Positions 3,418 through 16,255 of a DNA stretch of 18,910 bases are shown here, piece by piece (position 1 is the first letter of the stretch; every line of letters starts with the position of its first letter). The notes under the pieces were generated by a model that saw nothing but the letters and a program-made list of their open reading frames with translations, made no database searches and was not told the origin of the DNA. Source of the DNA: a virus (taxonomy: Duplodnaviria > Heunggongvirae > Uroviricota > Caudoviricetes); IMG/VR virus record IMGVR_UViG_3300031227_011131; one strand, 5' to 3'. A program made the translations under genes and the position numbers.

Positions 3418-4065
3418 ATGTCGGATAAGAAGCTGATTTTGATAAGCGAAGAGCTTGATATTCGTTCAAGGGATTTGCAAAAGCGTCAAATTGAGAATGA
3501 TGTGTTACAGGCTCAAGTTGAAGAATATAAGGCCAAGATGGTTGTGGCGGCTGATATGCTCAATGTAGGCCAAGAAGCTTTGCAATTTTTGGAAGATGTT
3601 GCTAATAGTCGTCGTGGCGCGATGAAGGTCAGGATTGAGCAGATTATTACAGAATCATTGCAGTTGATTTATGGTACAGATTATGCGGTTGCGCTTACTT
3701 ATGATGTCAAGAACAATCGTAGTTTCATGGATATTGAACTTGTTCTGCAAACGAAGGACGGGGAAGTAAGGAGGACAATGAATGGTTTTGGGGGCGGTGT
3801 TTCAGATTGCATATCAGTTCCTTTGCGGTTACTTGTATTGCTTGGTTCTCGGCAGACGGATAGGGTATGTGTGTTAGATGAAAGTTATAAGCATGTAGAC
3901 CTTGAGCGAATTGAATCGGTAGCTGAGTTTTTGGCTGACATAGCTCAACGTCTTGGAATACAGATTTTGTTGTTTTCTCATCATGCTGCAATGGCAGAAG
4001 AATCAGATGCTGTATATGACATTCGTGATGAGAGTGGCAGGGCAGTACTTGAAAAGACATCATGA
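3418..4065 (+). CDS. Split SbcC/Rad50-like ABC-ATPase, C-terminal half
   Basis: SD aggaggt. Coiled-coil N-terminus, signature FGGG, Walker B VLDE, D-loop YKHVD, H-loop FSHH; no Walker A. Confidence 0.8.
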   Translation: MSDKKLILISEELDIRSRDLQKRQIENDVLQAQVEEYKAKMVVAADMLNVGQEALQFLEDVANSRRGAMKVRIEQIITESLQLIYGTDYAVALTYDVKNNRSFMDIELVLQTKDGEVRRTMNGFGGGVSDCISVPLRLLVLLGSRQTDRVCVLDESYKHVDLERIESVAEFLADIAQRLGIQILLFSHHAAMAEESDAVYDIRDESGRAVLEKTS

Positions 4066-4102
4066 AGAAAATGCAGATTTTTGTGTAAATTTTTTTTACT
4101 GC

Positions 4103-4117
4103 GGTGACATATATAAT
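4103..4117 (+). promoter_or_regulatory. Promoter for the non-coding locus
   Basis: ggtgacatatataat, a variant of the GGTGATATAA motif with TATAAT at 4112-4117. Confidence 0.6.
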
Positions 4118-4153
4118 GTAAGGAGTTCATTGACAACAGAACTTTTCGAGAGA

Positions 4154-4226
4154 ACAATCGGGGAACTCTCGCGCCATAGTATGGTGCGTGATGTAAAAGT
4201 CATCTGCGAGCGAGTCCCCCCATTGT
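4154..4226 (+). ncRNA. Unidentified structured RNA module 1
   Basis: acaat/attgt, gggga/tcccc and ctcgc/gcgag nested stems, inner gcgccat/atggtgc hairpin; preceded by cattgacaac (4128). Confidence 0.5.
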
Positions 4227-4244
4227 CCAACAACATTGACAACT

Positions 4245-4329
4245 TGGTGATGTAAGGTTGTGTGGGTAATGAGTGTCCTGCGTTGCGGTCGCCCAATCGG
4301 CCCAGAGTGGACAACCCCTTGCATCATCA
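4245..4329 (+). ncRNA. Unidentified structured RNA module 2
   Basis: 13-bp closing stem tggtgatgtaagg/ccttgcatcatca; preceded by cattgacaac (4234). Confidence 0.55.
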
Positions 4330-4356
4330 TATCTTTGACAATCGAGGAATGGTATT

Positions 4357-4457
4357 GACGACACGGCGGTAGTGGCTTGCCGAACTGTCAGACGCGGTGC
4401 GCGCTACTAAGCTACTGGTAGTGTTTAGGCTGGCGTTCTGTCAGGTTCCGTGTTGTT
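4357..4457 (+). ncRNA. Unidentified structured RNA module 3 (three-way junction)
   Basis: 10-bp closing stem gacgacacgg/ccgtgttgtt, hairpin cggtag/ttgccg, long arm ending in gcgctacta/tggtagtgt; preceded by tctttgacaat (4332). Confidence 0.55.
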
Positions 4458-4491
4458 TTTTACAGTCGAGTTCGCTTTGATAACTGAGTTT

Positions 4492-5325: not shown

Positions 5326-6591
5326 ATGGCTAAGAACGATGAGAAACTGAACGAAGCAAGTCAAACAATGGACGGGTGTTATGGGGTGCAGACGACTATT
5401 GAGGTCGTCACAAAGTTTCTTGACACGGTATTCAAGATGAATGCTGCTATTGAGGGTGGCGGGACAGGCAGATTTTCGTCCTGTATATGGGGGCATGCGG
5501 GAATCGGCAAAACAGATATGATAAAGTCTTTTGAGAATCACCCTGTGACATGGGGTGGAAAGGAGTATGAGGGATATAGGGTAATTGATGTCCCTATTGC
5601 CCAGTTTGAAGAGATGGGTGATTTGCACGGAATTCCAATGGATTGTGTGCGGATGACCAATAACGGTGATGAGCAGTGGGTTCCTCAGAAGGATGAGGTT
5701 GTTCGTGCTTATCGAGAGAACGATTGGAAAATTGACACAGCTTCTAAGCCACGTACATTCATGGCCCCCCCGCCTTGGGTTCCTGACAAGCCCGGTCCTT
5801 CGATTCTTTTGTTGGATGATTGGAATCGGGCATCAATCCGCATCATCAAGGGCATAATGCAGTTGCTTCAGAACTACGGCATGGTTTCATGGAGTCTGCC
5901 TCTTGGTTGCAATATCGTCCTTACGGGCAATCCTGACGAGCAGGATTATTTGGTCACTACGATTGATCAAGCCATTCTGACCAGGATTAAGCACGTCACG
6001 TTGAAAGAGGATGCGAGCGAATGGGCGGTATGGGCTGTTGCCAACAAGATTGACAATCGGCTCATAAACTGGGTTTTGGCATATCCTGAGATGATGATTG
6101 GCAAGGAGCGTACGAATCCAAGAACGCTATCGGAGTTTGGTCGTTTCTTGAATTTGGTTGGCAGTGTTGAGTCCGAGCGTGAGGAAGTTGTGCTACATGC
6201 TCATTCTTTGCTGGATGAGGAAACAGTAGCTTCTATGCTTGTGTTTTTCACTCGCGAGATGGAAGACATCGTTGAGCCGGAAGATGTTCTTGAAGGCAAA
6301 GAAAAGGCTTTCAAACACATTGAGAACTTGATGACCAAGCGCAAGGAAGCTCGTGTTGATGTCGTCGGCATCACAATGGAGCGTTTGTATGCTCACATGG
6401 TACAGCCTGATTGCAAGCAGAGTCCGAAGCGAGTTAAAAACTTTCAGCGGTTCATCACTATGGGTTGTATTCCAGAGGATATGCGCCATAGCGTTTGCCG
6501 TCGGATTGCTAAGCGTCGTGAGAACAGGTTCAATCATTGGATTATCGGTGACAAGAAACTGAAAGCCTTGATTATGGACACTTTGCGGTAA
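5326..6591 (+). CDS. MoxR-like AAA+ ATPase
   Basis: Walker A WGHAGIGKT, Walker B ILLLDDWNRA, sensor-1 LTGNP, Arg finger AILTR; SD aggag. Confidence 0.9.
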   Translation: MAKNDEKLNEASQTMDGCYGVQTTIEVVTKFLDTVFKMNAAIEGGGTGRFSSCIWGHAGIGKTDMIKSFENHPVTWGGKEYEGYRVIDVPIAQFEEMGDLHGIPMDCVRMTNNGDEQWVPQKDEVVRAYRENDWKIDTASKPRTFMAPPPWVPDKPGPSILLLDDWNRASIRIIKGIMQLLQNYGMVSWSLPLGCNIVLTGNPDEQDYLVTTIDQAILTRIKHVTLKEDASEWAVWAVANKIDNRLINWVLAYPEMMIGKERTNPRTLSEFGRFLNLVGSVESEREEVVLHAHSLLDEETVASMLVFFTREMEDIVEPEDVLEGKEKAFKHIENLMTKRKEARVDVVGITMERLYAHMVQPDCKQSPKRVKNFQRFITMGCIPEDMRHSVCRRIAKRRENRFNHWIIGDKKLKALIMDTLR

Positions 6592-8787: not shown

Positions 8788-9144
8788 ATGTTTGGTTTGT
8801 TGACGGACATTTTCAACATTGTTAGATTTCTTGCGGTGTTGTTCGCAGTTGGTTGGGTGTTTATTTTTAGGATTTGGAAAGCGATGAAGTTGTTGTATTG
8901 TCAAAAATGTCAGGATGTGATTCGGTTGATAGAGGCGCGTCGGTATTGTCGTTGCGGTAGCATTTCTGGCAAATACATTGACAGTTTACAGGCGGAGTAT
9001 AGTGGGGCGTGTGCGATTCCTATTGGTTTTTCGAACAGTGATTTTTTACGTGCGATGCGGAATCAACCTGATAGTGGTTTAGGAGAGCATTTTGAGGCTT
9101 TTGTGATTCCGAGGAATTGTGAGACTTTTGTGATGAGAGATTAG
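8788..9144 (+). CDS. Zn-binding hypothetical protein (CxxC..CxCG), possibly with N-terminal TM segment
   Basis: MKLLYCQKCQD...YCRCG from ATG 8884; in-frame hydrophobic 32-aa leader from ATG 8788. Confidence 0.7.
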   Translation: MFGLLTDIFNIVRFLAVLFAVGWVFIFRIWKAMKLLYCQKCQDVIRLIEARRYCRCGSISGKYIDSLQAEYSGACAIPIGFSNSDFLRAMRNQPDSGLGEHFEAFVIPRNCETFVMRD

Positions 9145-9145
9145 G

Positions 9146-9223
9146 ATGATAGAAATTGTGTTGTGTGTTGTGACTTTTTGTGTTGTTGGGTATGTTTTGA
9201 ATTTGATGAACAGGTGGGATTAG
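9146..9223 (+). CDS. 25-aa hydrophobic microprotein
   Basis: MIEIVLCVVTFCVVGYVLNLMNRWD, starts 2 nt after the previous stop; not in the ORF track. Confidence 0.45.
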   Translation: MIEIVLCVVTFCVVGYVLNLMNRWD

Positions 9224-9297
9224 GATTTAGTGTTGTAATTTTTTGGAAAACTTGTTGCAAATTTGATTTTTGTGTGTAATATATTTGTAGTCATTAT

Positions 9298-9373
9298 CGC
9301 GGCGTAGAGCAGTGGACAGCTCGCCAGTCTCATAAACTGGAAGTCGCAGGTTCGAATCCCGTCGGTTACCCCA
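9298..9373 (+). tRNA. Chimeric tRNA: fMet(CAT) 5' part plus foreign (His-like) 3' end
   Basis: CGCGGCG..CCAGT-CT CAT AA-ACTGG..GCAGG TTCGAAT, then CCCGT CGGTTAC C CCA, which does not pair with the acceptor 5' strand. Confidence 0.8.
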
Positions 9374-9437
9374 TTTTGGCGGCTATGTATAATGTCGCGG
9401 GGATGGCATTGCATCGATCATCGTAGGAGGCGCAAGA

Positions 9438-9719
9438 ATGGCCAAGAATAGCATACGGCAGCGTATACCGAACTTCGTGGGTGGAGGGTCCCCGGAGACC
9501 GCGGAGTTTGGGACGATAGAAGAGCTGCTTTTGATACCGTGGGTGGCGCAGTGGATGCAAGTGATGGACGGCGTCCCATTTCTGCGGTTCTCGAAGTCGA
9601 AGGATATTCTAATGGTCGAGCACGGTCAAGAGAAGCAAGAGTCGTTCTGGGCCGTTGGTTATCTAAAGGACCCCGGCTCGGTGGATCTGCCCGAGTGGGT
9701 TAACCAACAGCGGATATGA
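9438..9719 (+). CDS. Hypothetical protein, GC-richer codons, flanked by 11-bp direct repeats
   Basis: SD aggagg; catcgatcatc at 9412-9422 and 9734-9744. Confidence 0.7.
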   Translation: MAKNSIRQRIPNFVGGGSPETAEFGTIEELLLIPWVAQWMQVMDGVPFLRFSKSKDILMVEHGQEKQESFWAVGYLKDPGSVDLPEWVNQQRI

Positions 9720-9751
9720 AACTTGCGGGGCTCCATCGATCATCCTACTTT

Positions 9752-9822
9752 GGCGCTGTCGTCTAATGGAAGGACGGCGGGTTCTCAGCCCGCAGGCCAG
9801 GGTTCGACTCCCTGTAGCGTCA
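9752..9822 (+). tRNA. tRNA-Glu(CTC)
   Basis: GGCGCTG/TAGCGTC acceptor, GCGGG-TT CTC AG-CCCGC, CAGGG TTCGACT CCCTG; CCA not encoded. Confidence 0.9.
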
Positions 9823-9830
9823 CGAGATTA

Positions 9831-9901
9831 GCGGGCGTCGTCTAATGGCAGGGCCTCAGCCTTCCAAGCTGATGACGAGGGTTCGAATCCTGTCGCCGCT
9901 A
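9831..9901 (+). tRNA. Chimeric tRNA: Gly(TCC) 5' part plus fMet 3' end
   Basis: TCAGC-CT TCC AA-GCTGA. The 3' strand CCTGT CGCCGCT A mispairs with its own 5' half but pairs with the 9298 fMet 5' half. Confidence 0.8.
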
Positions 9902-9930
9902 TCATGGTTTGAGTTATTGAGGAAAGAGAA

Positions 9931-10065
9931 ATGACTGATGACCTAATTGCGAAATGTAGAACATCAACACAGTGGTTGCCAGAACCGAAGGTGCAACCGT
10001 TGTGCCTGCATTTCGTGTTTGTATGCGATAATGCCGGATGCGGTGTGGAGGTTTGTAGCCCATGA
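9931..10065 (+). CDS. 44-aa Cys-containing microprotein
   Basis: SD gagg; MTDDLIAKCRTSTQWLPEPKVQPLCLHFVFVCDNAGCGVEVCSP; not in the ORF track. Confidence 0.5.
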   Translation: MTDDLIAKCRTSTQWLPEPKVQPLCLHFVFVCDNAGCGVEVCSP

Positions 10066-10081
10066 CTTAGGCTCAAAAAAT

Positions 10082-10178
10082 AAGTCAAAGTGGTTGCAAG
10101 CCTGTCAAGGAAACTTGACGGGTTTTTTTTGTTGGAAAATGATGAATTTTTTTGGATAGCTCGGTGATATAATAGTGC
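10082..10178 (+). repeat. Terminator-plus-promoter intergenic module, copy 2
   Basis: cctgtcaag-GAAA-cttgacggg-T8, then ggaaaatgatgaat..ggtgaTATAATagtg (TATAAT 10168-10173). Confidence 0.8.
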
Positions 10179-10198
10179 TGACAGTCATGTCTGAAGAA

Positions 10199-10221
10199 GC
10201 TCTTTGATAACTGAGTTTGGA
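10199..10221 (+). promoter_or_regulatory. boxA-like antitermination element in tRNA-operon leader
   Basis: gctctttgataactgagtttgga resembles rrn boxA (E. coli TGCTCTTTAACA); 20-nt identity to 4475-4494. Confidence 0.6.
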
Positions 10222-10269
10222 AAACGCCAAATGTCATCAATCGGCTGGGGAGTAATGTCCTCAGTTGTT

Positions 10270-10343
10270 CGGAGCGTGGGCTAGTTTGGTAAGCCACCAG
10301 TTTTGGGAACTGGTAATCGGAGGTTCAAATCCTCTCGCTCCGA
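10270..10343 (+). tRNA. tRNA-Pro(TGG), canonical
   Basis: CGGAGCG/CGCTCCG acceptor, CCAGT-TT TGG GA-ACTGG, GGAGG TTCAAAT CCTCT. Confidence 0.92.
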
Positions 10344-10356
10344 TTTTCTTAGGTAA

Positions 10357-10511
10357 TAAAGCGATGTGAAAAAGGGTACGACGCTGTTGTGTGTAGTCGT
10401 GAGCGAAAGCAGCGGCAAGGGAGATATTCTCGCCCAACACACAACAGAATTAAGCGGAAGCCGCCTGCTAAGTAGGTTGTCGTCCTTGAAACCTTAGCAA
10501 GCATCGCTTTA
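10357..10511 (+). ncRNA. Unidentified structured RNA with possible pseudoknot
   Basis: 11-bp closing stem taaagcgatgt/gcatcgcttta; perfect 11-bp ctgttgtgtgt/acacacaacag; tgctaag (10466) complementary to cttagca (10493). Confidence 0.65.
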
Positions 10512-10514
10512 CAT

Positions 10515-10604
10515 CTGGGTGTAGCTCAGCTTGGCCAGAGCACTCGGCTTGGAACCGAGAGGCCGGAAAGGTATACGCTGGTTCAAATCCAGCCACTCAG
10601 ACCA
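10515..10604 (+). tRNA. tRNA-Pro(TGG) with 17-nt variable region, CCA encoded
   Basis: CTGGGTG/CACTCAG, CTCGG-CT TGG AA-CCGAG, AGGCCGGAAAGGTATAC, GCTGG TTCAAAT CCAGC, ACCA. Confidence 0.85.
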
Positions 10605-10606
10605 AC

Positions 10607-10798
10607 GGCGGCGGGTGCCTTACAGCATTCATCCAATAATGCATGCCGCTTGTGGATGAATGACGGGTTACTACCGCCAACTTCTTCTGTCTATAGGTGA
10701 CACCTTCCTATTCTGTGACGGTATGGCGACGAGCGGGTGGAACCCGTGGACGACCATATTGGAGAAAAAGTGGTGTGACTCCGGGGAGAGCGACCCGG
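10607..10798 (+). ncRNA. Structured spacer RNA(s) between tRNA-Pro genes
   Basis: Perfect 10-bp cattcatcca/tggatgaatg within ggcgg/ccgcc; further stems atagg/cctat, gtatgg/ccatat and ccggg/cccgg. Confidence 0.45.
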
Positions 10799-10801
10799 CG
10801 A

Positions 10802-10883
10802 CGGAATGTGGCGCAGTTTGGTAGCGCGCTCGGTTTGGGGCCGAGGGGCCGAGAGGTCGTGAGTTCAAGTCTCACCATTCCGA
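10802..10883 (+). tRNA. tRNA-Pro(TGG) with 13-nt variable arm
   Basis: CGGAATG/CATTCCG, CTCGG-TT TGG GG-CCGAG, GGCC-GAGA-GGTC arm, GTGAG TTCAAGT CTCAC. Confidence 0.85.
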
Positions 10884-10967
10884 TTATGGGTGTCAATGTC
10901 GTGCGAGCCAGTTAGAAGAAAGCATTACCCTGCGAGTAATCTAGCCCGTCAATCGAAACAGGATGCC

Positions 10968-10992
10968 TTGGGAGATACGGTGTATCTCCCAA
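10968..10992 (+). other. Perfect 11-bp hairpin before tRNA-Lys remnant
   Basis: ttgggagatac-ggt-gtatctcccaa. Confidence 0.6.
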
Positions 10993-10994
10993 AA

Positions 10995-11056
10995 CGGGGC
11001 GTAGCGCAATTGGTAGCGCACCTGACTTTTAATCAGGTTGTTGCCGGTTCAAGTCC
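10995..11056 (+). pseudogene. tRNA-Lys(TTT) truncated after the T-loop
   Basis: Intact D arm and CCTGA-CT TTT AA-TCAGG; GCCGG TTCAAGT CC, then non-pairing TTCTGGGAAAA. Confidence 0.8.
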
Positions 11057-11078
11057 TTCTGGGAAAAAGGAGTATGAC

Positions 11079-11342
11079 ATGGAATTAAAGCGTGTGGAAT
11101 GCAAAGAAGACATGCACATTGAAATGGGCTATTTAGTTTTGTGGAAGAAATTTGAGATGGGGCAGTCGTGTGTCAGAGAAGAAATGCTTGATGATACAAT
11201 TTGGGACATGGCATGTTGGGGGTGGCGTAATGGCGAGAAGCGTATCATAATTGAAGGTTACGAACATGACATTAGTTGCCGATTTGATGAAATTGGGGCA
11301 GTTTTTGAGTTGCCGGATAGGCATAGCGAAATTTCCTTATGA
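11079..11342 (+). CDS. Hypothetical protein
   Basis: SD aaggag, ATG 11079 (upstream part of the tracked ORF overlaps RNA genes). Confidence 0.65.
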   Translation: MELKRVECKEDMHIEMGYLVLWKKFEMGQSCVREEMLDDTIWDMACWGWRNGEKRIIIEGYEHDISCRFDEIGAVFELPDRHSEISL

Positions 11343-11410
11343 ATGAGAATCTATCTAACATAGATATATGATATGAAACTTAGTGCTTTTCAATAGAAAA
11401 TGTAACTATA

Positions 11411-11434
11411 GGGGACGTAACTCAATGGAAGAGT
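11411..11434 (+). pseudogene. tRNA 5' fragment (acceptor 5' strand plus D arm)
   Basis: GGGGACG TA ACTC AATGGAA GAGT, with no anticodon or T arm following. Confidence 0.5.
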
Positions 11435-11443
11435 GGTTTTTGA

Positions 11444-11473
11444 TTGACAATTGAGTTACTGTTATGGTAGTGT
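11444..11473 (+). promoter_or_regulatory. Promoter for the HTH/Zn-finger gene
   Basis: TTGACA-18 nt-TAGTGT with TGG extension. Confidence 0.45.
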
Positions 11474-11501
11474 GTTCATGTCTTATTCAAGGAGAAAAGA
11501 C

Positions 11502-11858
11502 ATGGACAAGGCTCTGTTAGAAGATGCGGCAAGGCGTCGTCTTTCTACGCATAGGATGGCCGACGAACTGGGATGTAGTCAGACGAATGTTATGTATTGG
11601 TTGAGAAAACATGGCCTGAAGACAGACACCTCGGTAAGACGTGGCATCAAGAGGAAGGGATTGAATGTTAGTTGTTATATTTGTGGCAAACCAACAAAAG
11701 AGGGCAGACGCCTTTGCCCTTGCTGTACGATAAAGGTAAGACGGTATAGGGTAAAGCTGGATGGTAAACCATTAGCAGTCGAGCGCCGGACAGTGCAAGA
11801 GCATAGAAAGGTGCACTCGTGTACGAGGACCTATTGCCGAGGGTTAGGCGAACGCTGA
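11502..11858 (+). pseudogene. HTH plus Zn-finger protein, likely N-terminal part of an HNH homing endonuclease lacking the nuclease domain
   Basis: SD aaggag. HTH (MADELGCSQTNVMYWLRKHGL), CYICG..CPCC, RRYRVKL, after which the sequence turns into stem-rich GC-richer DNA with no HNH motif. Confidence 0.55.
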
Positions 11859-11950
11859 GGCGTCTGGCTGGACAACCCCGTGCCCAGGTAGGTTGAATTC
11901 CTGAAGCACCTTTTCGTAAACTGGGCGATAGTTGCTCTGCGACATCTAAC
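11760..11950 (+). ncRNA. Probable structured RNA of unknown class
   Basis: agtgca/tgcact, ctcgt/acgag and gcccag/ctgggc stems, T-arm-like agg-ttgaatt-cct; lies immediately 5' of tRNA-Leu. Confidence 0.35.
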
Positions 11951-11975
11951 AGAAAGACACCGTAAGTTGTCAATT

Positions 11976-12049
11976 AGGAGCGTGACGGAACTGGCATACG
12001 TGGTCGGCTCAAACCCGGCATTTTGTGGGTTCGACTCCCTTCGCTCCTA
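11976..12049 (+). tRNA. tRNA-Leu(CAA), short variable loop
   Basis: AGGAGCG/CGCTCCT, GTCGG-CT CAA AC-CCGGC; one T.T mismatch in the T-stem. Confidence 0.85.
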
Positions 12050-12060
12050 TCATTGAAATC

Positions 12061-12185
12061 ATAGGGAGAGATGTGGGATGTGAATACCACAGGCAGCTTC
12101 GGAAACTATGGTTTTCGGGGTCCGTCGGGCAGCCCTTAGCGGGGAGTAAGTCGGGCTAAGCAGGTTTGAATCCTGCCCTCTCTAT
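12061..12185 (+). ncRNA. tRNA-like RNA with two extra arms in place of the anticodon/variable arms
   Basis: 8-bp atagggag/ctctctat, D-like tgtgg/ccaca, 11-bp hairpin with TATG loop, agccc/gggct arm, T-arm gcagg-TTTGAAT-cctgc. Confidence 0.6.
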
Positions 12186-12219
12186 GTTTTTCAGGTTTTT
12201 TCGTGAAAAATTAGCGATA

Positions 12220-12229
12220 GGTGATATAA
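12220..12229 (+). promoter_or_regulatory. GGTGATATAA promoter motif
   Basis: 19-nt identity (taggtgatataaaggtagt) with 18863-18881. Confidence 0.7.
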
Positions 12230-12273
12230 AGGTAGTTGAAAACATGGACACAGACACGAACAAGGGGAATGAA

Positions 12274-12426
12274 ATGACAATGGAAGAGATGGAACTAATA
12301 GATATTTACTGGAGAATAATGGCAGAGTATCGGAAGGAGTATTTTCTGGGCGAAGCAGATGTCGTCGATCAAATGGACGAGAAGTTGGACGAAATCTACG
12401 ATAGGCTCCAAAGTCTCGCTGTATAA
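12274..12426 (+). CDS. Small acidic hypothetical protein
   Basis: SD aagggga, ATG 12274. Confidence 0.6.
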   Translation: MTMEEMELIDIYWRIMAEYRKEYFLGEADVVDQMDEKLDEIYDRLQSLAV

Positions 12427-12460
12427 ACAATCCAAAAAAGAGGCTGAAAAGGAGTTGGGC

Positions 12461-12751
12461 ATGGAAATGACAGCAAAAAAGAGAATTGAAACTTTGGGCG
12501 ATTATCGTAATGTTGCCTCACTGTTGAAGGCAGCAATAGAGTCAAATGATGTTGAGGCTATTGAGAATCTTTCGGCCTGTGCTGAAGAGATGTATGATTC
12601 GCTTCGCTATCAAGCACCGTGGATCACTAAAAGGACGGATGAGCAGTTGGGCATGCAAGAGGTGTTCAAAGCCGCTCGCGTTATTTATTGCGAAGTTCGG
12701 GACTATTGGATAAAGACTCAAAATGAGGATCTAGTTCCATACGAGGGATAG
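12461..12751 (+). CDS. Hypothetical protein
   Basis: SD aaggag, ATG 12461; followed by a terminator. Confidence 0.7.
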   Translation: MEMTAKKRIETLGDYRNVASLLKAAIESNDVEAIENLSACAEEMYDSLRYQAPWITKRTDEQLGMQEVFKAARVIYCEVRDYWIKTQNEDLVPYEG

Positions 12752-12767
12752 TGGTTGGTAGGTGGCT

Positions 12768-12804
12768 CGCCTCACTGAGAACATCAGTGGGGCGTCTTTT
12801 TTTT
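12768..12804 (+). terminator. Intrinsic terminator
   Basis: cgcctcactga-gaaca-tcagtggggcg followed by a T-tract. Confidence 0.85.
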
Positions 12805-12952
12805 GGCTCGCCTAATCGGTATGGCACTCTTTGGATTTCATTTCCAGAATTTTTTATGCACAATTTGGCACAAAAGAAGAGCGTGATGAAGCTATAATGG
12901 AAACATGGTGACGTTTTGAAATTGAATCTTGATTGTGACAGGGGAAAGAGTC

Positions 12953-13589
12953 TTGAATGACAGAGAAAAGCAAGAATTGAGCTATTGGCAGCGTAAAGGC
13001 ATTTCATTGGGTCGTCATTATTTCGTTCAGAAGCATAAAGAACGTTTGGAGATATTTAGGAAACTTCACAGTTTTCCAAGCGGCTTGATTGCTATTGATA
13101 TAGGTTGTGGCCCTTTCGGCGGGATGTCCTTAGTTTACAAGGGAGAGCGAGAAAGCCCACGGCTTTAGGCGTGGGAGTAGTCACAAGGCGTCTAATTTTT
13201 ATCTTGTGGATTCATTGAACAATGCGTACAAGGAATTGATAGATCAGGTAAATGGCTTTGTCTATTTGGCGAATCATTCCGAGAGTTTGAATATAGCCGA
13301 TAGTAGTGTAGAAATTGCCTTTTGTTGCAATGTTCTCGACCATACGGAAAGCAGATCAAAAACGTTGAAAGAGACACATCGCGTATTGAAGTTAGGTGGT
13401 TTATTTTGTCTATCTGTGCATTGCAGGACAAAGGAGCAATTGAGTTCTTTGCACAAGCAGGCTTTCACGTATGCGGAATTGACGGCTGAACTTCTTGAGT
13501 CTGGTTTTAGCAATTTGGGTAGTAGGTCAGACAGGCGTACTGCTGACGGTCATATTGTTTTTGATGGTGTGTTTCAAAATGGAGTTTGA
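12953..13589 (+). pseudogene. Class I SAM-dependent methyltransferase interrupted by a 46-bp element
   Basis: Motif I IDIGCGP in the 5' piece; VDSL..Y, CCNVLDH and VLKLGG in the 3' piece. Deleting 13139-13184 fuses them in frame (LVY-KASNFYLVDSL). Confidence 0.85.
13139..13184 (+). mobile_element. Minimal IS200/IS605-derived (PATE-like) element
   Basis: Follows TTAC; imperfect hairpin cccacggc-ttta-ggcgtggg; ends agtagTCAC. Confidence 0.75.
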
Positions 13590-13876
13590 TGATGATAGTT
13601 GTGGTTGATTGTATTCCGAGTGGCGGCAGACCGATATATGATAAGAGGATTGATGGAACTGTCCAAGTTGTAGACGAGGTTGATGGAAAATTTGATGCTG
13701 TTGAGACAGGTCATGGCGCCGCTCGGGTGCTTGTGCCACTTTTTGGGCAAACACGGGAAATGACAAGTGTTATGACTGAGGTGATTGAGGAATATGCTAT
13801 AGAGGAATCGAATATTGTCATTGTTTTACAGGATGACAAGATTGGACTTTTGATACACAATGGAAACGCCATCTAA
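13586..13876 (+). CDS. Hypothetical protein
   Basis: Start overlaps the methyltransferase stop (TTGA/TGATG); normal codon usage. Confidence 0.65.
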   Translation: MMMIVVVDCIPSGGRPIYDKRIDGTVQVVDEVDGKFDAVETGHGAARVLVPLFGQTREMTSVMTEVIEEYAIEESNIVIVLQDDKIGLLIHNGNAI

Positions 13877-13903
13877 ATTCTCATTCATTATTGGAGAATA
13901 GTC

Positions 13904-14086
13904 ATGATTGATGCCGACTTGTTTAAATTGATCGAAGCATCCATTGCCGAGTCAATGGAAAACGACCGCATATTCAACTGCAAAGAGGGGCAATGTCAAA
14001 GTAAGGCGTTCATAGCCATGGTGAATCACGTTCGAGGATGTCGAAAAAGAAAAGATCAGGCTTTGTTGGACGAGATAGACACTTAG
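13904..14086 (+). CDS. Small hypothetical protein
   Basis: SD ggag; 60 aa. Confidence 0.55.
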   Translation: MIDADLFKLIEASIAESMENDRIFNCKEGQCQSKAFIAMVNHVRGCRKRKDQALLDEIDT

Positions 14087-14276
14087 GATGGCAAGTAGTC
14101 ATCGGCATCTTGGGAGTTATTTGTCAGTGATATTGCTGTGCATATAGCCAAGTTGACGAACGATGATATCATTGCTATAACAGAGAGGATATTTGGTGGA
14201 GAGATGAAGTTCATCAAAATGACTCAAGGCGAACGCGAAGCTTTTTGAGAAAAGTCGTCAATTTTTGGTTTGGCGT

Positions 14277-14285
14277 TGATATAAT
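14277..14285 (+). promoter_or_regulatory. Extended -10 promoter (TGA-TATAAT)
   Basis: Intergenic, upstream of tRNA remnants. Confidence 0.6.
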
Positions 14286-14297
14286 AAGTAGCAGATT

Positions 14298-14332
14298 GCC
14301 CATAGCTTAACTGGGAGAGTACCTGACTGGCG
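14298..14332 (+). pseudogene. tRNA 5' fragment
   Basis: TTGCCCA TA GCTT AACTGGGA GAGT A CCTGA CT, then no complementary anticodon strand or T arm. Confidence 0.5.
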
Positions 14333-14532
14333 TGGATTGGGCTTCTGATACGCTAATCAAGTGGAGGATATATGTTAGGGCAAAAGTTCAAGACTGTTAT
14401 AGAATGATCCTCAGACAATGGAACAGCTTCAGTTTAGGCTTCAGGAGTCGATTTCATGCGGAGGGTATTTTGGTCGGTTCGTCCTGGAGTTGAAGTAGCT
14501 TTTTGGTTGGTCAAAAAAGAGAACTGACTTTT

Positions 14533-14589
14533 GGGGCCATAGCTCAATTGGGAGAGCACCTCTTTCGTAAAGAGGAAGTTGCGGGTTCG
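14533..14589 (+). pseudogene. tRNA (anticodon CGT, Thr) truncated in the T-loop
   Basis: GGGGCCA TA GCTC AATTGGGA GAGC A CCTCT-TT CGT AA-AGAGG AAGTT GCGGG TTCG, then unrelated sequence. Confidence 0.8.
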
Positions 14590-14732
14590 GCTTCATATTT
14601 TCGAGGTCTCTCCTCAAGGAGAGTGGATTGAAATAACATCTTAATTTTGCGGGCAAGACAGGAAGTTTGAAGATGTCGTAATTGTCGTTGCAACAATTCT
14701 TTTATATTGGCGATTAGATGGAGGACGTTGAA

Positions 14733-14912
14733 ATGTTTGAATGGCTTTTTGGTCGTCGTTTGTGCGATGCTCCTGCTGATGTTCGTCGTCGTGGTCGCGC
14801 ATTGGTTTTTGGAGCTTCAGCTTCAGTAAAGCCTTCTGTTGAGATAGAGAAGGATAACGAAAGTGAGGAAAGCGATTGTGGAGAAGAAGAAGACGAAGAC
14901 AGCGACGGGTAG
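14733..14912 (+). CDS. Small protein with acidic tail
   Basis: SD ggagg, ATG 14733. Confidence 0.6.
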   Translation: MFEWLFGRRLCDAPADVRRRGRALVFGASASVKPSVEIEKDNESEESDCGEEEDEDSDG

Positions 14913-14971
14913 ACCTATTTTGTCATTTTATTTATGACCCAGAAGTTGGGGAATTCTATATTCAGGACGAT

Positions 14972-16255
14972 TTGTCTTATCGGATAGCCAGGAAGATTGC
15001 ATCAGATGATTATACGGCGATGGAAACAAAGACAAGAAGGATTAGTTTGAATTATATTTCAAAGGTTGCTGGCGAATTGGTACGGGTATCTCGGCTCCTG
15101 GTGGGATTCAGGGTCGAGATGACTCCCAAGACGGTGAAATCGGCTCGCTTGGAGTTCCTCAAGAGGCTTAGGGGTATAGAACGGGCAATCAAGACCGAGG
15201 ACGACGTGGAGGCTCAGGGGAAGGTTCTTAACGGTCTGCTCGAAACGGTGGAGAGGTTCTTCTATGATTGGCTTCTTGGAAAGCACATGCAGCGTGTCAC
15301 GTCTGGGGTGTCAAATGAGAAGCTCGATCCCATTGCCAGCGATCTACAGGGAACAGCGTGGGAATTCGTGATGGGCATCAGGGGACACGATCTGGAGATA
15401 CAGCTTACACCTCACTGGACACTCGATCCTGGCGAGTTTGAGAAGGTCAAGAAGAGGCTATTTGAGTCGATCAAGCGTAAGGCAAGGGCCGCGTTCAAGG
15501 ATGCGAACGAGTTTGTGGTCTATTCAAGCCAGGCTGGAGAGACTGTTGAGTTGGCCGAGAAAGTTACGGTTGGCAAGATGACCCTGGTTCCAGTTCAGGG
15601 CTCCGAGTCGAAACAGATGGCGAGGGCGGTGAAAGACGTGAAGAGGGCTGTGGGAGCGATCAAGTCCTCTGGGCTCGGCAAGGTGGTCCAAAAACCGATG
15701 GTCATTTTGGTACAACGACACGGCGAGGGCTTGGTGAGTGCTAAGTATGCCCCAGCGAAGGACATCATCACATTGTTGGGTCTAGCTAGTGACGGCACTG
15801 TGATTCACGAGTTCGGTCATCGGTATTGGTACAAGATTCTGGACAGCGGGCGTCGAAATTACTGGGATAGGGCGTTTAGGGGTGATTTGATAGAGATAAC
15901 CAAAACCGACATTGACGATGTATTGGACTTGGCCAAGCGTTCGCGTGGCGAGAACAAGTTGGATCAGTTGCGGGCTGGTGTTAAGACTTACGGTCGCTCT
16001 GGCGATCCTGTTCGCTCTCACAAGGCCAATTCTTTCTATCGGTCTATCTACCGTTGGTATGAGAAACCCGACTATTGGGAGAGGACTCGGAAGTTCTGGA
16101 TGGACGATTACGTTGGCAAGCCCGTGATGATGAACCATGTGACGGACTACGGGAACACGAACGCAGAGGAGGCCTTTGCGGAAGTGTTCATGCTCTACGT
16201 GCTGGGCGATTCGATAGTGCCGACTGTGGAGTATTGGTTCGAGCAGATCATCTGA
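14972..16255 (+). CDS. Zincin-like metallopeptidase domain protein (HExxH), GC-richer than flanks
   Basis: VIHEFGH plus downstream YGNTNAEEAFAEVF, as in lethal-factor-like/MPTase zincins. Start uncertain (TTG 14972 or ATG 15020). Confidence 0.7.
   Translation: MSYRIARKIASDDYTAMETKTRRISLNYISKVAGELVRVSRLLVGFRVEMTPKTVKSARLEFLKRLRGIERAIKTEDDVEAQGKVLNGLLETVERFFYDWLLGKHMQRVTSGVSNEKLDPIASDLQGTAWEFVMGIRGHDLEIQLTPHWTLDPGEFEKVKKRLFESIKRKARAAFKDANEFVVYSSQAGETVELAEKVTVGKMTLVPVQGSESKQMARAVKDVKRAVGAIKSSGLGKVVQKPMVILVQRHGEGLVSAKYAPAKDIITLLGLASDGTVIHEFGHRYWYKILDSGRRNYWDRAFRGDLIEITKTDIDDVLDLAKRSRGENKLDQLRAGVKTYGRSGDPVRSHKANSFYRSIYRWYEKPDYWERTRKFWMDDYVGKPVMMNHVTDYGNTNAEEAFAEVFMLYVLGDSIVPTVEYWFEQII

Follow-up and report, generated by a model that had tools for sequence, protein, structure and literature searches.

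An initiator-like tRNA-Met gene of an uncultured giant phage is split at its T-loop by what is probably a captured piece of a foreign tRNA cluster

How does a phage tRNA gene come to be split inside its T-loop, with its two pieces held 531 bp apart and each fused to a piece of a different tRNA? The question is raised by an 18,910-nucleotide stretch of viral DNA (IMG/VR virus record IMGVR_UViG_3300031227_011131), here called the window, to which all positions refer unless another locus is named, and in which an initiator-like tRNA-Met(CAT) gene is interrupted by parts of tRNA-His and tRNA-Gly, an open reading frame (ORF) and an intact tRNA-Glu. The window corresponds to about 84,005-102,914 of the 221,945-bp contig ena:ERZ27316532:k141_455309 (locus L001), which belongs to an uncultured giant phage of salt-lake metagenomes, and the tRNA region was read over contig positions 83,442-131,634 (about 48 kb; loci L001, L009, L011 and L012), referred to below as the 48-kb stretch. 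The answer that we favor, with a probability of roughly 0.7, is that illegitimate recombination or break repair joined 531 bp of a foreign tRNA cluster into the T-loop of the Met gene.

All features of the locus lie on the + strand. A repeat search places the 11-mer GGTTCGAATCC at 9349-9359, the left junction, and again at 9880-9890, the right junction. As this 11-mer is the universal T-loop consensus, the repeat by itself is unsurprising; the element that is not due to chance is the cognate fit of the Met pieces across the insert. Positions 9298-9359 hold the 5' part (tRNA positions 1-62) of the initiator-like tRNA-Met(CAT), with the acceptor strand CGCGGCG, a D arm that carries A11:U24, the anticodon arm, the T-stem strand GCAGG and the T-loop, as recognized by Rfam, by a pairing matrix and by ARAGORN on a deletion construct. 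The left repeat is followed at 9360-9375 by the 3' end of a tRNA-His-type gene (T-stem remainder, acceptor CGGTTAC, C73 and CCA), and this sequence (CGT CGGTTAC C CCA) pairs poorly with the acceptor and T stems of Met. The insert continues with ORF93 (9438-9719), a cargo ORF of 93 amino acids with a GGAGG ribosome site, and with an intact tRNA-Glu(CTC) at 9752-9823, which is called by ARAGORN, scores 56.6 bits over the full length of the Rfam model and pairs with its own 3' end at 12/12 positions (10 Watson-Crick and 2 G-U). It ends with the 5' part (positions 1-62) of a tRNA-Gly(TCC), placed by Rfam alignment at 9831-9890, whose T-loop is the right repeat. Beyond this, at 9891-9901, lies the displaced 3' end of Met (T-stem TGT, acceptor CGCCGCT and A73), identified by its cognate-level pairing with the 5' part of Met; TGT CGCCGCT A does not suit Gly.

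The cognate fit was assessed in a 9 x 9 pairing matrix, in which every 5' part of the array was set against every 3' end that follows a T-loop, over the 12 positions of the acceptor and T stems. The matrix was limited to such 3' ends; counting with G-U pairs over the whole 20 kb gave many chance matches of 11/12. True cognates of the array form 10-12 Watson-Crick pairs out of 12, and non-cognate combinations at most 8. The Met 5' part forms 10 Watson-Crick pairs and one G-U pair with the 3' end at 9889-9900, the sole non-pair being 1:72, and it pairs at the cognate level with no other 3' end in the array. The two combinations that actually stand at the junctions fare differently. The Met-5'/His-3' hybrid (9298-9375) has 5 Watson-Crick and 2 G-U pairs (acceptor 3/7 and T stem 4/5, G-U included), and the Gly-5'/Met-3' hybrid (9831-9901) has 6 and 3, with mismatches at 2:71 and 3:70, a G-U pair at 1:72 and A as the discriminator. 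Neither can form a canonical cloverleaf with its own acceptor and T stems, and ARAGORN calls neither hybrid. The Rfam tRNA model scores 43.4 bits at 9303-9364, where the match spans model positions 6-65 only and leaves the acceptor stem outside, and 38.5 bits at 9831-9900, where the T and acceptor stems are mismatched and four non-pairs are flagged; the D and anticodon arms are intact in both. In E. coli, glycine identity follows the rule G1:C72, C2:G71, G3:C70 and U73. Judging from their pairing, both hybrid genes are most likely dead, because their acceptor and T stems cannot pair, and the Gly hybrid in addition lacks the determinants at 1:72, 2:71, 3:70 and 73.

When the 531 bp are removed in silico, ARAGORN calls a tRNA-Met(CAT); the junction of the corresponding circle, which joins the Gly 5' part to the His 3' end, gives no tRNA call. 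The rebuilt 3' end (GT CGCCGCT A) resembles the Met 3' ends of Pseudanabaena phage Pan5 and of a relative, G001. A mismatch at 1:72 is a hallmark of initiator tRNAs, and the rebuilt gene has a C1xU72 mismatch along with A11:U24; in the anticodon stem, where bacterial initiators have three consecutive G:C pairs (29:41, 30:40 and 31:39), it has only G30:C40. The label of initiator (fMet) given by the original prediction, which had been made from the window alone, is thus partly earned, and the gene may also have been an elongator Met or a lysidine-type Ile. In its other points the anatomy that had been predicted stands: the direct repeat and its spacing, the well-formed tRNA obtained by deletion, the two tRNAs broken in their T and acceptor stems only 3' of the loop, the foreign 3' end that is His-like from C73, and the order of His 3' end, ORF, tRNA-Glu(CTC) and tRNA-Gly(TCC) 5' part within the insert.

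The arrangement exists in the DNA of the phage. The same 607 bp are found, identical, in six assemblies from different samples made by three pipelines (ENA megahit k141, JGI and Logan), a seventh assembly (variant L007) differs from them by 4 single-nucleotide polymorphisms, and in two further runs separate low-depth contigs span each of the junctions, the run evidence consisting of Logan contigs and not raw reads. Among the run contigs that cover the locus none skips the 531 bp, and most of the loose ends belong to tRNAs of other organisms. Beyond the presence of a short repeat nothing speaks for an assembly artefact at the 11-mer, and misassembly is excluded, because k-mers of up to 141 far exceed the repeat and multiple assemblies agree. 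All copies are at least 99.96% identical, so that they represent one lineage seen repeatedly and do not amount to independent evolutionary support.

The foreign 3' end is, by its sequence, of the tRNA-His type. The 20-mer TTCGAATCCCGTCGGTTACC, which comprises the T-loop and the foreign 3' end, was found at a single locus (L008) in a scan of JGI metagenome contigs. This locus carries, at 477-553, an intact tRNA-His(GTG) with an encoded G-1, within an unrelated, AT-rich, phage-like tRNA array; its 3' end is identical to window positions 9360-9375, and its 5' strands pair with 9360-9375 at 12/12 positions (10 Watson-Crick and 2 G-U). No exact match to a 23-mer of the His 3' end was found in GTDB species genomes, and IMG/VR gave no exact match to this end or to the Met 5' part.

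The insert looks compositionally foreign. ORF93 has a GC content of 0.553 and a GC content at third codon positions of 0.691, and the other 22 genes of the window lie at 0.35-0.55 for the latter. Among 5.8 billion proteins, only near-identical copies of ORF93 were found, it has no Pfam or PHROG match, and its ESM Atlas model, with a predicted local distance difference test score of 0.39, gives no usable structural match. ORF93 is flanked by two copies of a 14-nt direct repeat (repeat family D8) at 9412-9425 (CATCGATCATCGTA) and 9734-9747, which follow the pattern CATCGATCATC[G/C]TA, with GCGGGG shortly upstream of each copy. ORF93 may be a cassette that had earlier been inserted in the donor array, or the 14-nt repeat may be a processing signal.

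Nowhere in the 48-kb stretch did we find a 5' part that fits the His 3' end, a 3' end cognate to Gly(TCC) or Lys(TTT), an intact Met, His or Gly, or a reciprocal His-5'/Gly-3' hybrid. Integrase and recombinase families are likewise absent from the precomputed Pfam matches of the genes in this stretch, and the insert itself encodes no recombinase. The donor was therefore probably another genome, as indicated by the foreign composition together with the missing reciprocal hybrid. A second tRNA cluster may nevertheless exist elsewhere in the contig, because the relative G001 has one about 55 kb from its main cluster. GAG is among the most used codons of the phage (41.9 per 1000), and it is a matter of speculation that the gain of a tRNA-Glu(CUC) for this frequent codon could explain why the insertion has persisted.

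Relatives of the phage, found via its 421-amino-acid ATPase (5326-6591; hundreds of homologs at 50-74% identity), indicate that the site is plastic. In the window, a promoter-like site (TTGCAA, a 16-nt spacer and TAATAT, at 9255-9282), seen by eye, below the threshold of our consensus scan and therefore putative, lies just upstream of the Met gene. The Met 3' end is followed by ORF44 (9931-10065), a native downstream gene called in L001 with blastn and tblastx matches to L015 4875-5157, and by a hairpin resembling an intrinsic terminator (10098-10125), which was found by the consensus scan, is conserved in L015 and appears to close a small operon. L015 is the closest relative (ATPase 74% identical), and shares the order of ATPase, a 385-amino-acid gene, the ORF44 homolog, the terminator, a second promoter, a boxA-like leader and a tRNA-Pro (88% identical). 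In L015 no tRNA stands between the promoter and the ORF44 homolog, which follow each other directly, so the site is empty. A promoter-like site at the head of this operon or array is also present in the relatives L015 and L024. In G001 (ATPase 57%), a promoter-like site precedes an array of 30 tRNAs whose first gene is an intact Met(CAT) with a mismatch at 1:72 (T1xT72). An initiator-like Met thus occurs in this group as the first tRNA of an array, going by the sequence of G001, whose tRNAs are only 60-70% like those of the window and allow no comparison of alleles. In relatives L016-L023, no tRNA lies closer than 10 kb to the ATPase. Array order and content differ greatly even at 74% protein identity, a comparison that shows a rapid turnover of tRNA arrays.

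The mechanism is what we infer from these observations. The T-arm would be the only homology between otherwise non-homologous tRNA genes, and would be used by illegitimate recombination or by double-strand-break repair. In the proposed course of events, DNA broken at the Met T-loop or immediately 3' of it would have been repaired by copying a co-infecting genome, probably that of a phage, from the T-loop of its tRNA-His to the T-loop of its tRNA-Gly, which would reproduce the observed anatomy exactly. The captured piece would run from the His T-loop through ORF93 and the intact tRNA-Glu(CUC) to the T-loop of tRNA-Gly(UCC), and would stem from a more GC-rich cluster. The outcome is a pair of hybrids, Met-5'/His-3' and Gly-5'/Met-3', with both junctions inside GGTTCGAATCC, and the phage acquired a working tRNA-Glu(CUC) and an ORF. 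The T-arms of Met and His match at 17/19 bases, and their two differences form the compensating pair 51:63. The Met-5'/His-3' hybrid holds A51 of Met and C63 of His, so that the crossover must lie within the 11-mer. Our preference for break repair or illegitimate recombination over site-specific integration has three grounds: the 48-kb stretch yielded no recombinase, the target tRNA was left unrestored, and phage T4 provides a direct precedent in its homing endonuclease SegB.

A homing endonuclease with a T-loop motif as its recognition sequence, like SegB, may have produced the break. The tRNA region of the phage holds several nuclease genes, namely a GIY-YIG gene of 82 amino acids (L001 19985-20233), an HNH gene of 179 amino acids (L012 13091-13630), a LAGLIDADG-like gene of 256 amino acids (L011 15511-16281) and a remnant of HNH and helix-turn-helix type (11502-11858). 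The remnant is the endonuclease-like ORF nearest to the insert, and the GIY-YIG, LAGLIDADG and HNH genes lie 9.5-29 kb downstream. The SegB-type motif GGTTCRANTCC is present at both junctions; as it is universal in tRNAs, this is weak evidence.

Several points weigh against the capture of a foreign piece by break repair, or narrow it. Neither an intact Met allele of this sequence nor a donor locus with the order His-ORF93-Glu-Gly was found in our searches, and for this reason the succession of events had to be inferred from a single lineage. No homing endonuclease lies inside or beside the insert, ORF93 has no nuclease motif, and the GIY-YIG protein is much shorter than SegB; the cutting of T-loops is a candidate activity for the endonucleases of this phage. 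The non-function of the hybrids is deduced from pairing only, and about 174 kb of the 222-kb contig lie outside the stretch that was read.

Three other explanations of the DNA arrangement or its role deserve to be weighed. In the original prediction, a His...Gly segment of the same genome had been excised as a circle by recombination between T-loops and re-integrated into Met by a tyrosine integrase acting at the T-loop. The direct 11-bp repeats at both ends, placed like attL and attR, agree with this, and the T-loop is a documented crossover position of integrases, as in mycobacteriophage Ms6 with the T-loops of tRNA-Ala (PMC1762012). The route is nonetheless unlikely, given that the insert is foreign in composition, that the 48-kb stretch contains no reciprocal hybrid and no intact His or Gly, that neither the insert nor the gene tables of this stretch show an integrase or recombinase, and that the target tRNA was not restored, unlike in islands carried by integrases. 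The checks proposed along with that prediction came out as follows: the reciprocal chimera and the tyrosine recombinase were sought in the 48 kb and not found, the comparison with relatives for an intact Met gave an empty site in L015 and, in the distant G001, an intact Met that is not this allele, and the junctions, which might have come from misassembly, did not. A different history would have two separate deletions, each from T-loop to T-loop, in an older array of the order Met-...-His-ORF93-Glu-Gly-...-Met, fusing Met to His and Gly to Met. Deletion between the T-arms of neighboring tRNA genes is the classic route to hybrids, and the array does contain duplicated tRNAs (Leu(CAA) twice and Ser(CGA) twice). 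We give this history little credence, as it requires two Met copies with the same stems around a compositionally foreign block and two events that both hit the same 11-mer, the 48-kb stretch contains no second Met, and the relatives carry either no Met or one Met at the site.

It is also conceivable that the split gene still works, with the Met pieces pairing across the insert in the operon transcript and the insert being removed or the pieces cooperating, possibly via RtcB and RNA ligase 1 (Rnl1). A T4-type Rnl1, a Macro-domain protein and RtcB are indeed encoded among the downstream tRNAs (L011 10001-15250), 20 kb downstream of the locus, the arrangement is fixed in all sampled copies, and RNAfold retains the long-range pairing of the Met acceptor and T-arm in both the minimum free energy and the centroid structure of a 611-nt transcript. 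The fold is, however, no more stable than those of shuffled sequences (z = -1.3), and Rfam found only tRNAs and no intron family in 9000-15000 (E up to 1), no specific search for a bulge-helix-bulge having been made. The would-be intron opens with a His 3' end and CCA, closes with a Gly 5' part and includes a foreign ORF as well as a tRNA, which is the look of a DNA recombination scar, and the closest relative, L015, does without the gene. Splicing at the T-loop is not known from bacteria or phages. For these reasons a functional split tRNA is very improbable, and it is just as hard to credit that, once RNase P and RNase Z had released tRNA-Glu, the Met pieces would be trimmed and sealed or would act as a two-piece tRNA. 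If it were true, it would be a tRNA split at the T-loop in a bacterial virus.

Apart from the split Met gene, the tRNA region contains other disturbed tRNA genes. The tRNA-Lys(TTT) at 10995-11056 is intact through the T-loop; beyond it, where its T and acceptor stems should be completed by their 3' strands, come instead the ribosome site and the start of ORF87 (11079-11342). The LAGLIDADG gene mentioned above (locus L011 15410-16340, contig about 116.9-117.8 kb) has an intact tRNA-Leu(TAA) on one side and, on the other, a second copy of the 3' part of this tRNA, which extends from the anticodon loop onward and includes the ribosome site and first codons of the next gene; the stop codon TAA of the ORF coincides with the anticodon. 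From its sequence, this locus looks like the scar of a homing-endonuclease insertion. Two near-identical, short-armed tRNA-Leu(CAA) genes lie about 10 kb apart, at 11976-12049 in the window and at L009 12903-12976; the 3' strand of the T stem reads CCCTT in the window copy, with one non-pair, and CCCAC in the L009 copy, which pairs fully. After a tRNA-Leu and a tRNA-Arg, L009 13040-13460 contains a T-arm with the 3' end CCGGCCC-ACCA whose 5' partner is unpaired, and also a minihelix of about 44 nt that consists of an acceptor and a T-arm only.

The surroundings are those of a phage genome. All genes of the window are on the + strand, the GC skew is strong, and the PHROG and Pfam matches are phage-like. 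The tRNA region begins at 9298 and continues for about 33 kb from there, and seemingly the whole downstream tRNA region falls inside the 48-kb stretch, in which the downstream tRNAs are Thr, Leu, Arg, Ile, Gln, Ser, Leu, Thr and Ser. A blastn search of INPHARED phages returned only generic tRNA matches at 75-85% identity, and IMG/VR gave no relative of the 391-amino-acid neighbor gene. A protein search with the 385-amino-acid neighbor gene gave no homologs beyond this phage. An element at 12064-12186 is not recognized by Rfam. In L015, a metallo-beta-lactamase-fold gene with a Pfam match to Anti-Pycsar Apyc1 (3569-4459) occupies the slot that in the window holds a 118-amino-acid zinc-ribbon-like ORF (8788-9144), a variable slot just upstream of the tRNA operon. 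L015 5686-5753 gives a sub-threshold match to YrlA (Y RNA-like; 38.5 bits against a gathering score of 69) and adjoins a tRNA-like sequence.

The locus is a clean natural record of the reshuffling of tRNA clusters in phages. It portrays the universally conserved T-arm as a portable stretch of homology that would allow parts of unrelated arrays, with their cargo, to be captured at the cost of the target tRNA. It also carries a warning for annotation, in that covariance-model tRNA matches in such arrays may be dead hybrids.

Among known systems, SegB of T4 is a precedent for the mechanism proposed here. SegB, whose gene lies in the T4 tRNA cluster, is a homing endonuclease of the GIY-YIG type; its 27-bp site has the conserved 5' part GGTTCRANTCC, and it cuts many T2L tRNA genes towards their 3' ends and drives the transfer of its own gene along with neighboring tRNA genes (PMC2330249). 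The present locus shares with it the motif at both junctions and a tRNA region rich in free-standing endonuclease genes. It differs in that no endonuclease gene lies in or beside the 531-bp insert, that it is known from sequence alone, and that repair in crosses of T4 with T2L uses a homologous array and leaves no hybrids. Taken together, the broken Lys(TTT), the Leu duplication around the LAGLIDADG gene, the GIY-YIG and HNH genes and the specificity of SegB suggest that breaks made in T-loops by endonucleases may quite generally drive the turnover of tRNA arrays in giant phages, and this link to T-loop-specific homing endonucleases is the part worth testing.

Islands and prophages of tyrosine integrases also use the T-loop as a sublocation within tRNA genes (Ms6, PMC1762012; Islander database, PMC4383910). 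They resemble the present case in the split at the T-loop, in the direct core repeat at both ends (here 11 bp, and at the same time a generic consensus) and in the 3' fragment displaced to the far end. Here, however, no integrase was found in the insert or the 48-kb stretch, the element measures only 531 bp and itself has parts of two further tRNAs at its ends, and the 3' end that it supplies does not regenerate the target, being of the His type and pairing poorly with the Met 5' part.

The products themselves have parallels in hybrid tRNA genes. McClain and Foss reportedly described, in 1984 in Cell 38:225, hybrid tRNA genes of phage T4 that arose by recombination between different tRNA genes. 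A chimeric tRNA pseudogene of the rice plastid, attributed to Hiratsuka et al. 1989, is known to us as that work is cited in PMC12371153. In those cases, as in ours, 5' and 3' parts of different isoacceptors are joined in the conserved T-arm and the product is non-cognate; there, the hybrids come from a deletion between neighbors or an inversion, whereas here an insertion splits one gene into two hybrids and brings foreign cargo with it. Hybrid tRNA genes made by recombination have thus long been known, and the split tRNA-Met gene is a real and well-resolved example of a familiar kind of recombination scar.

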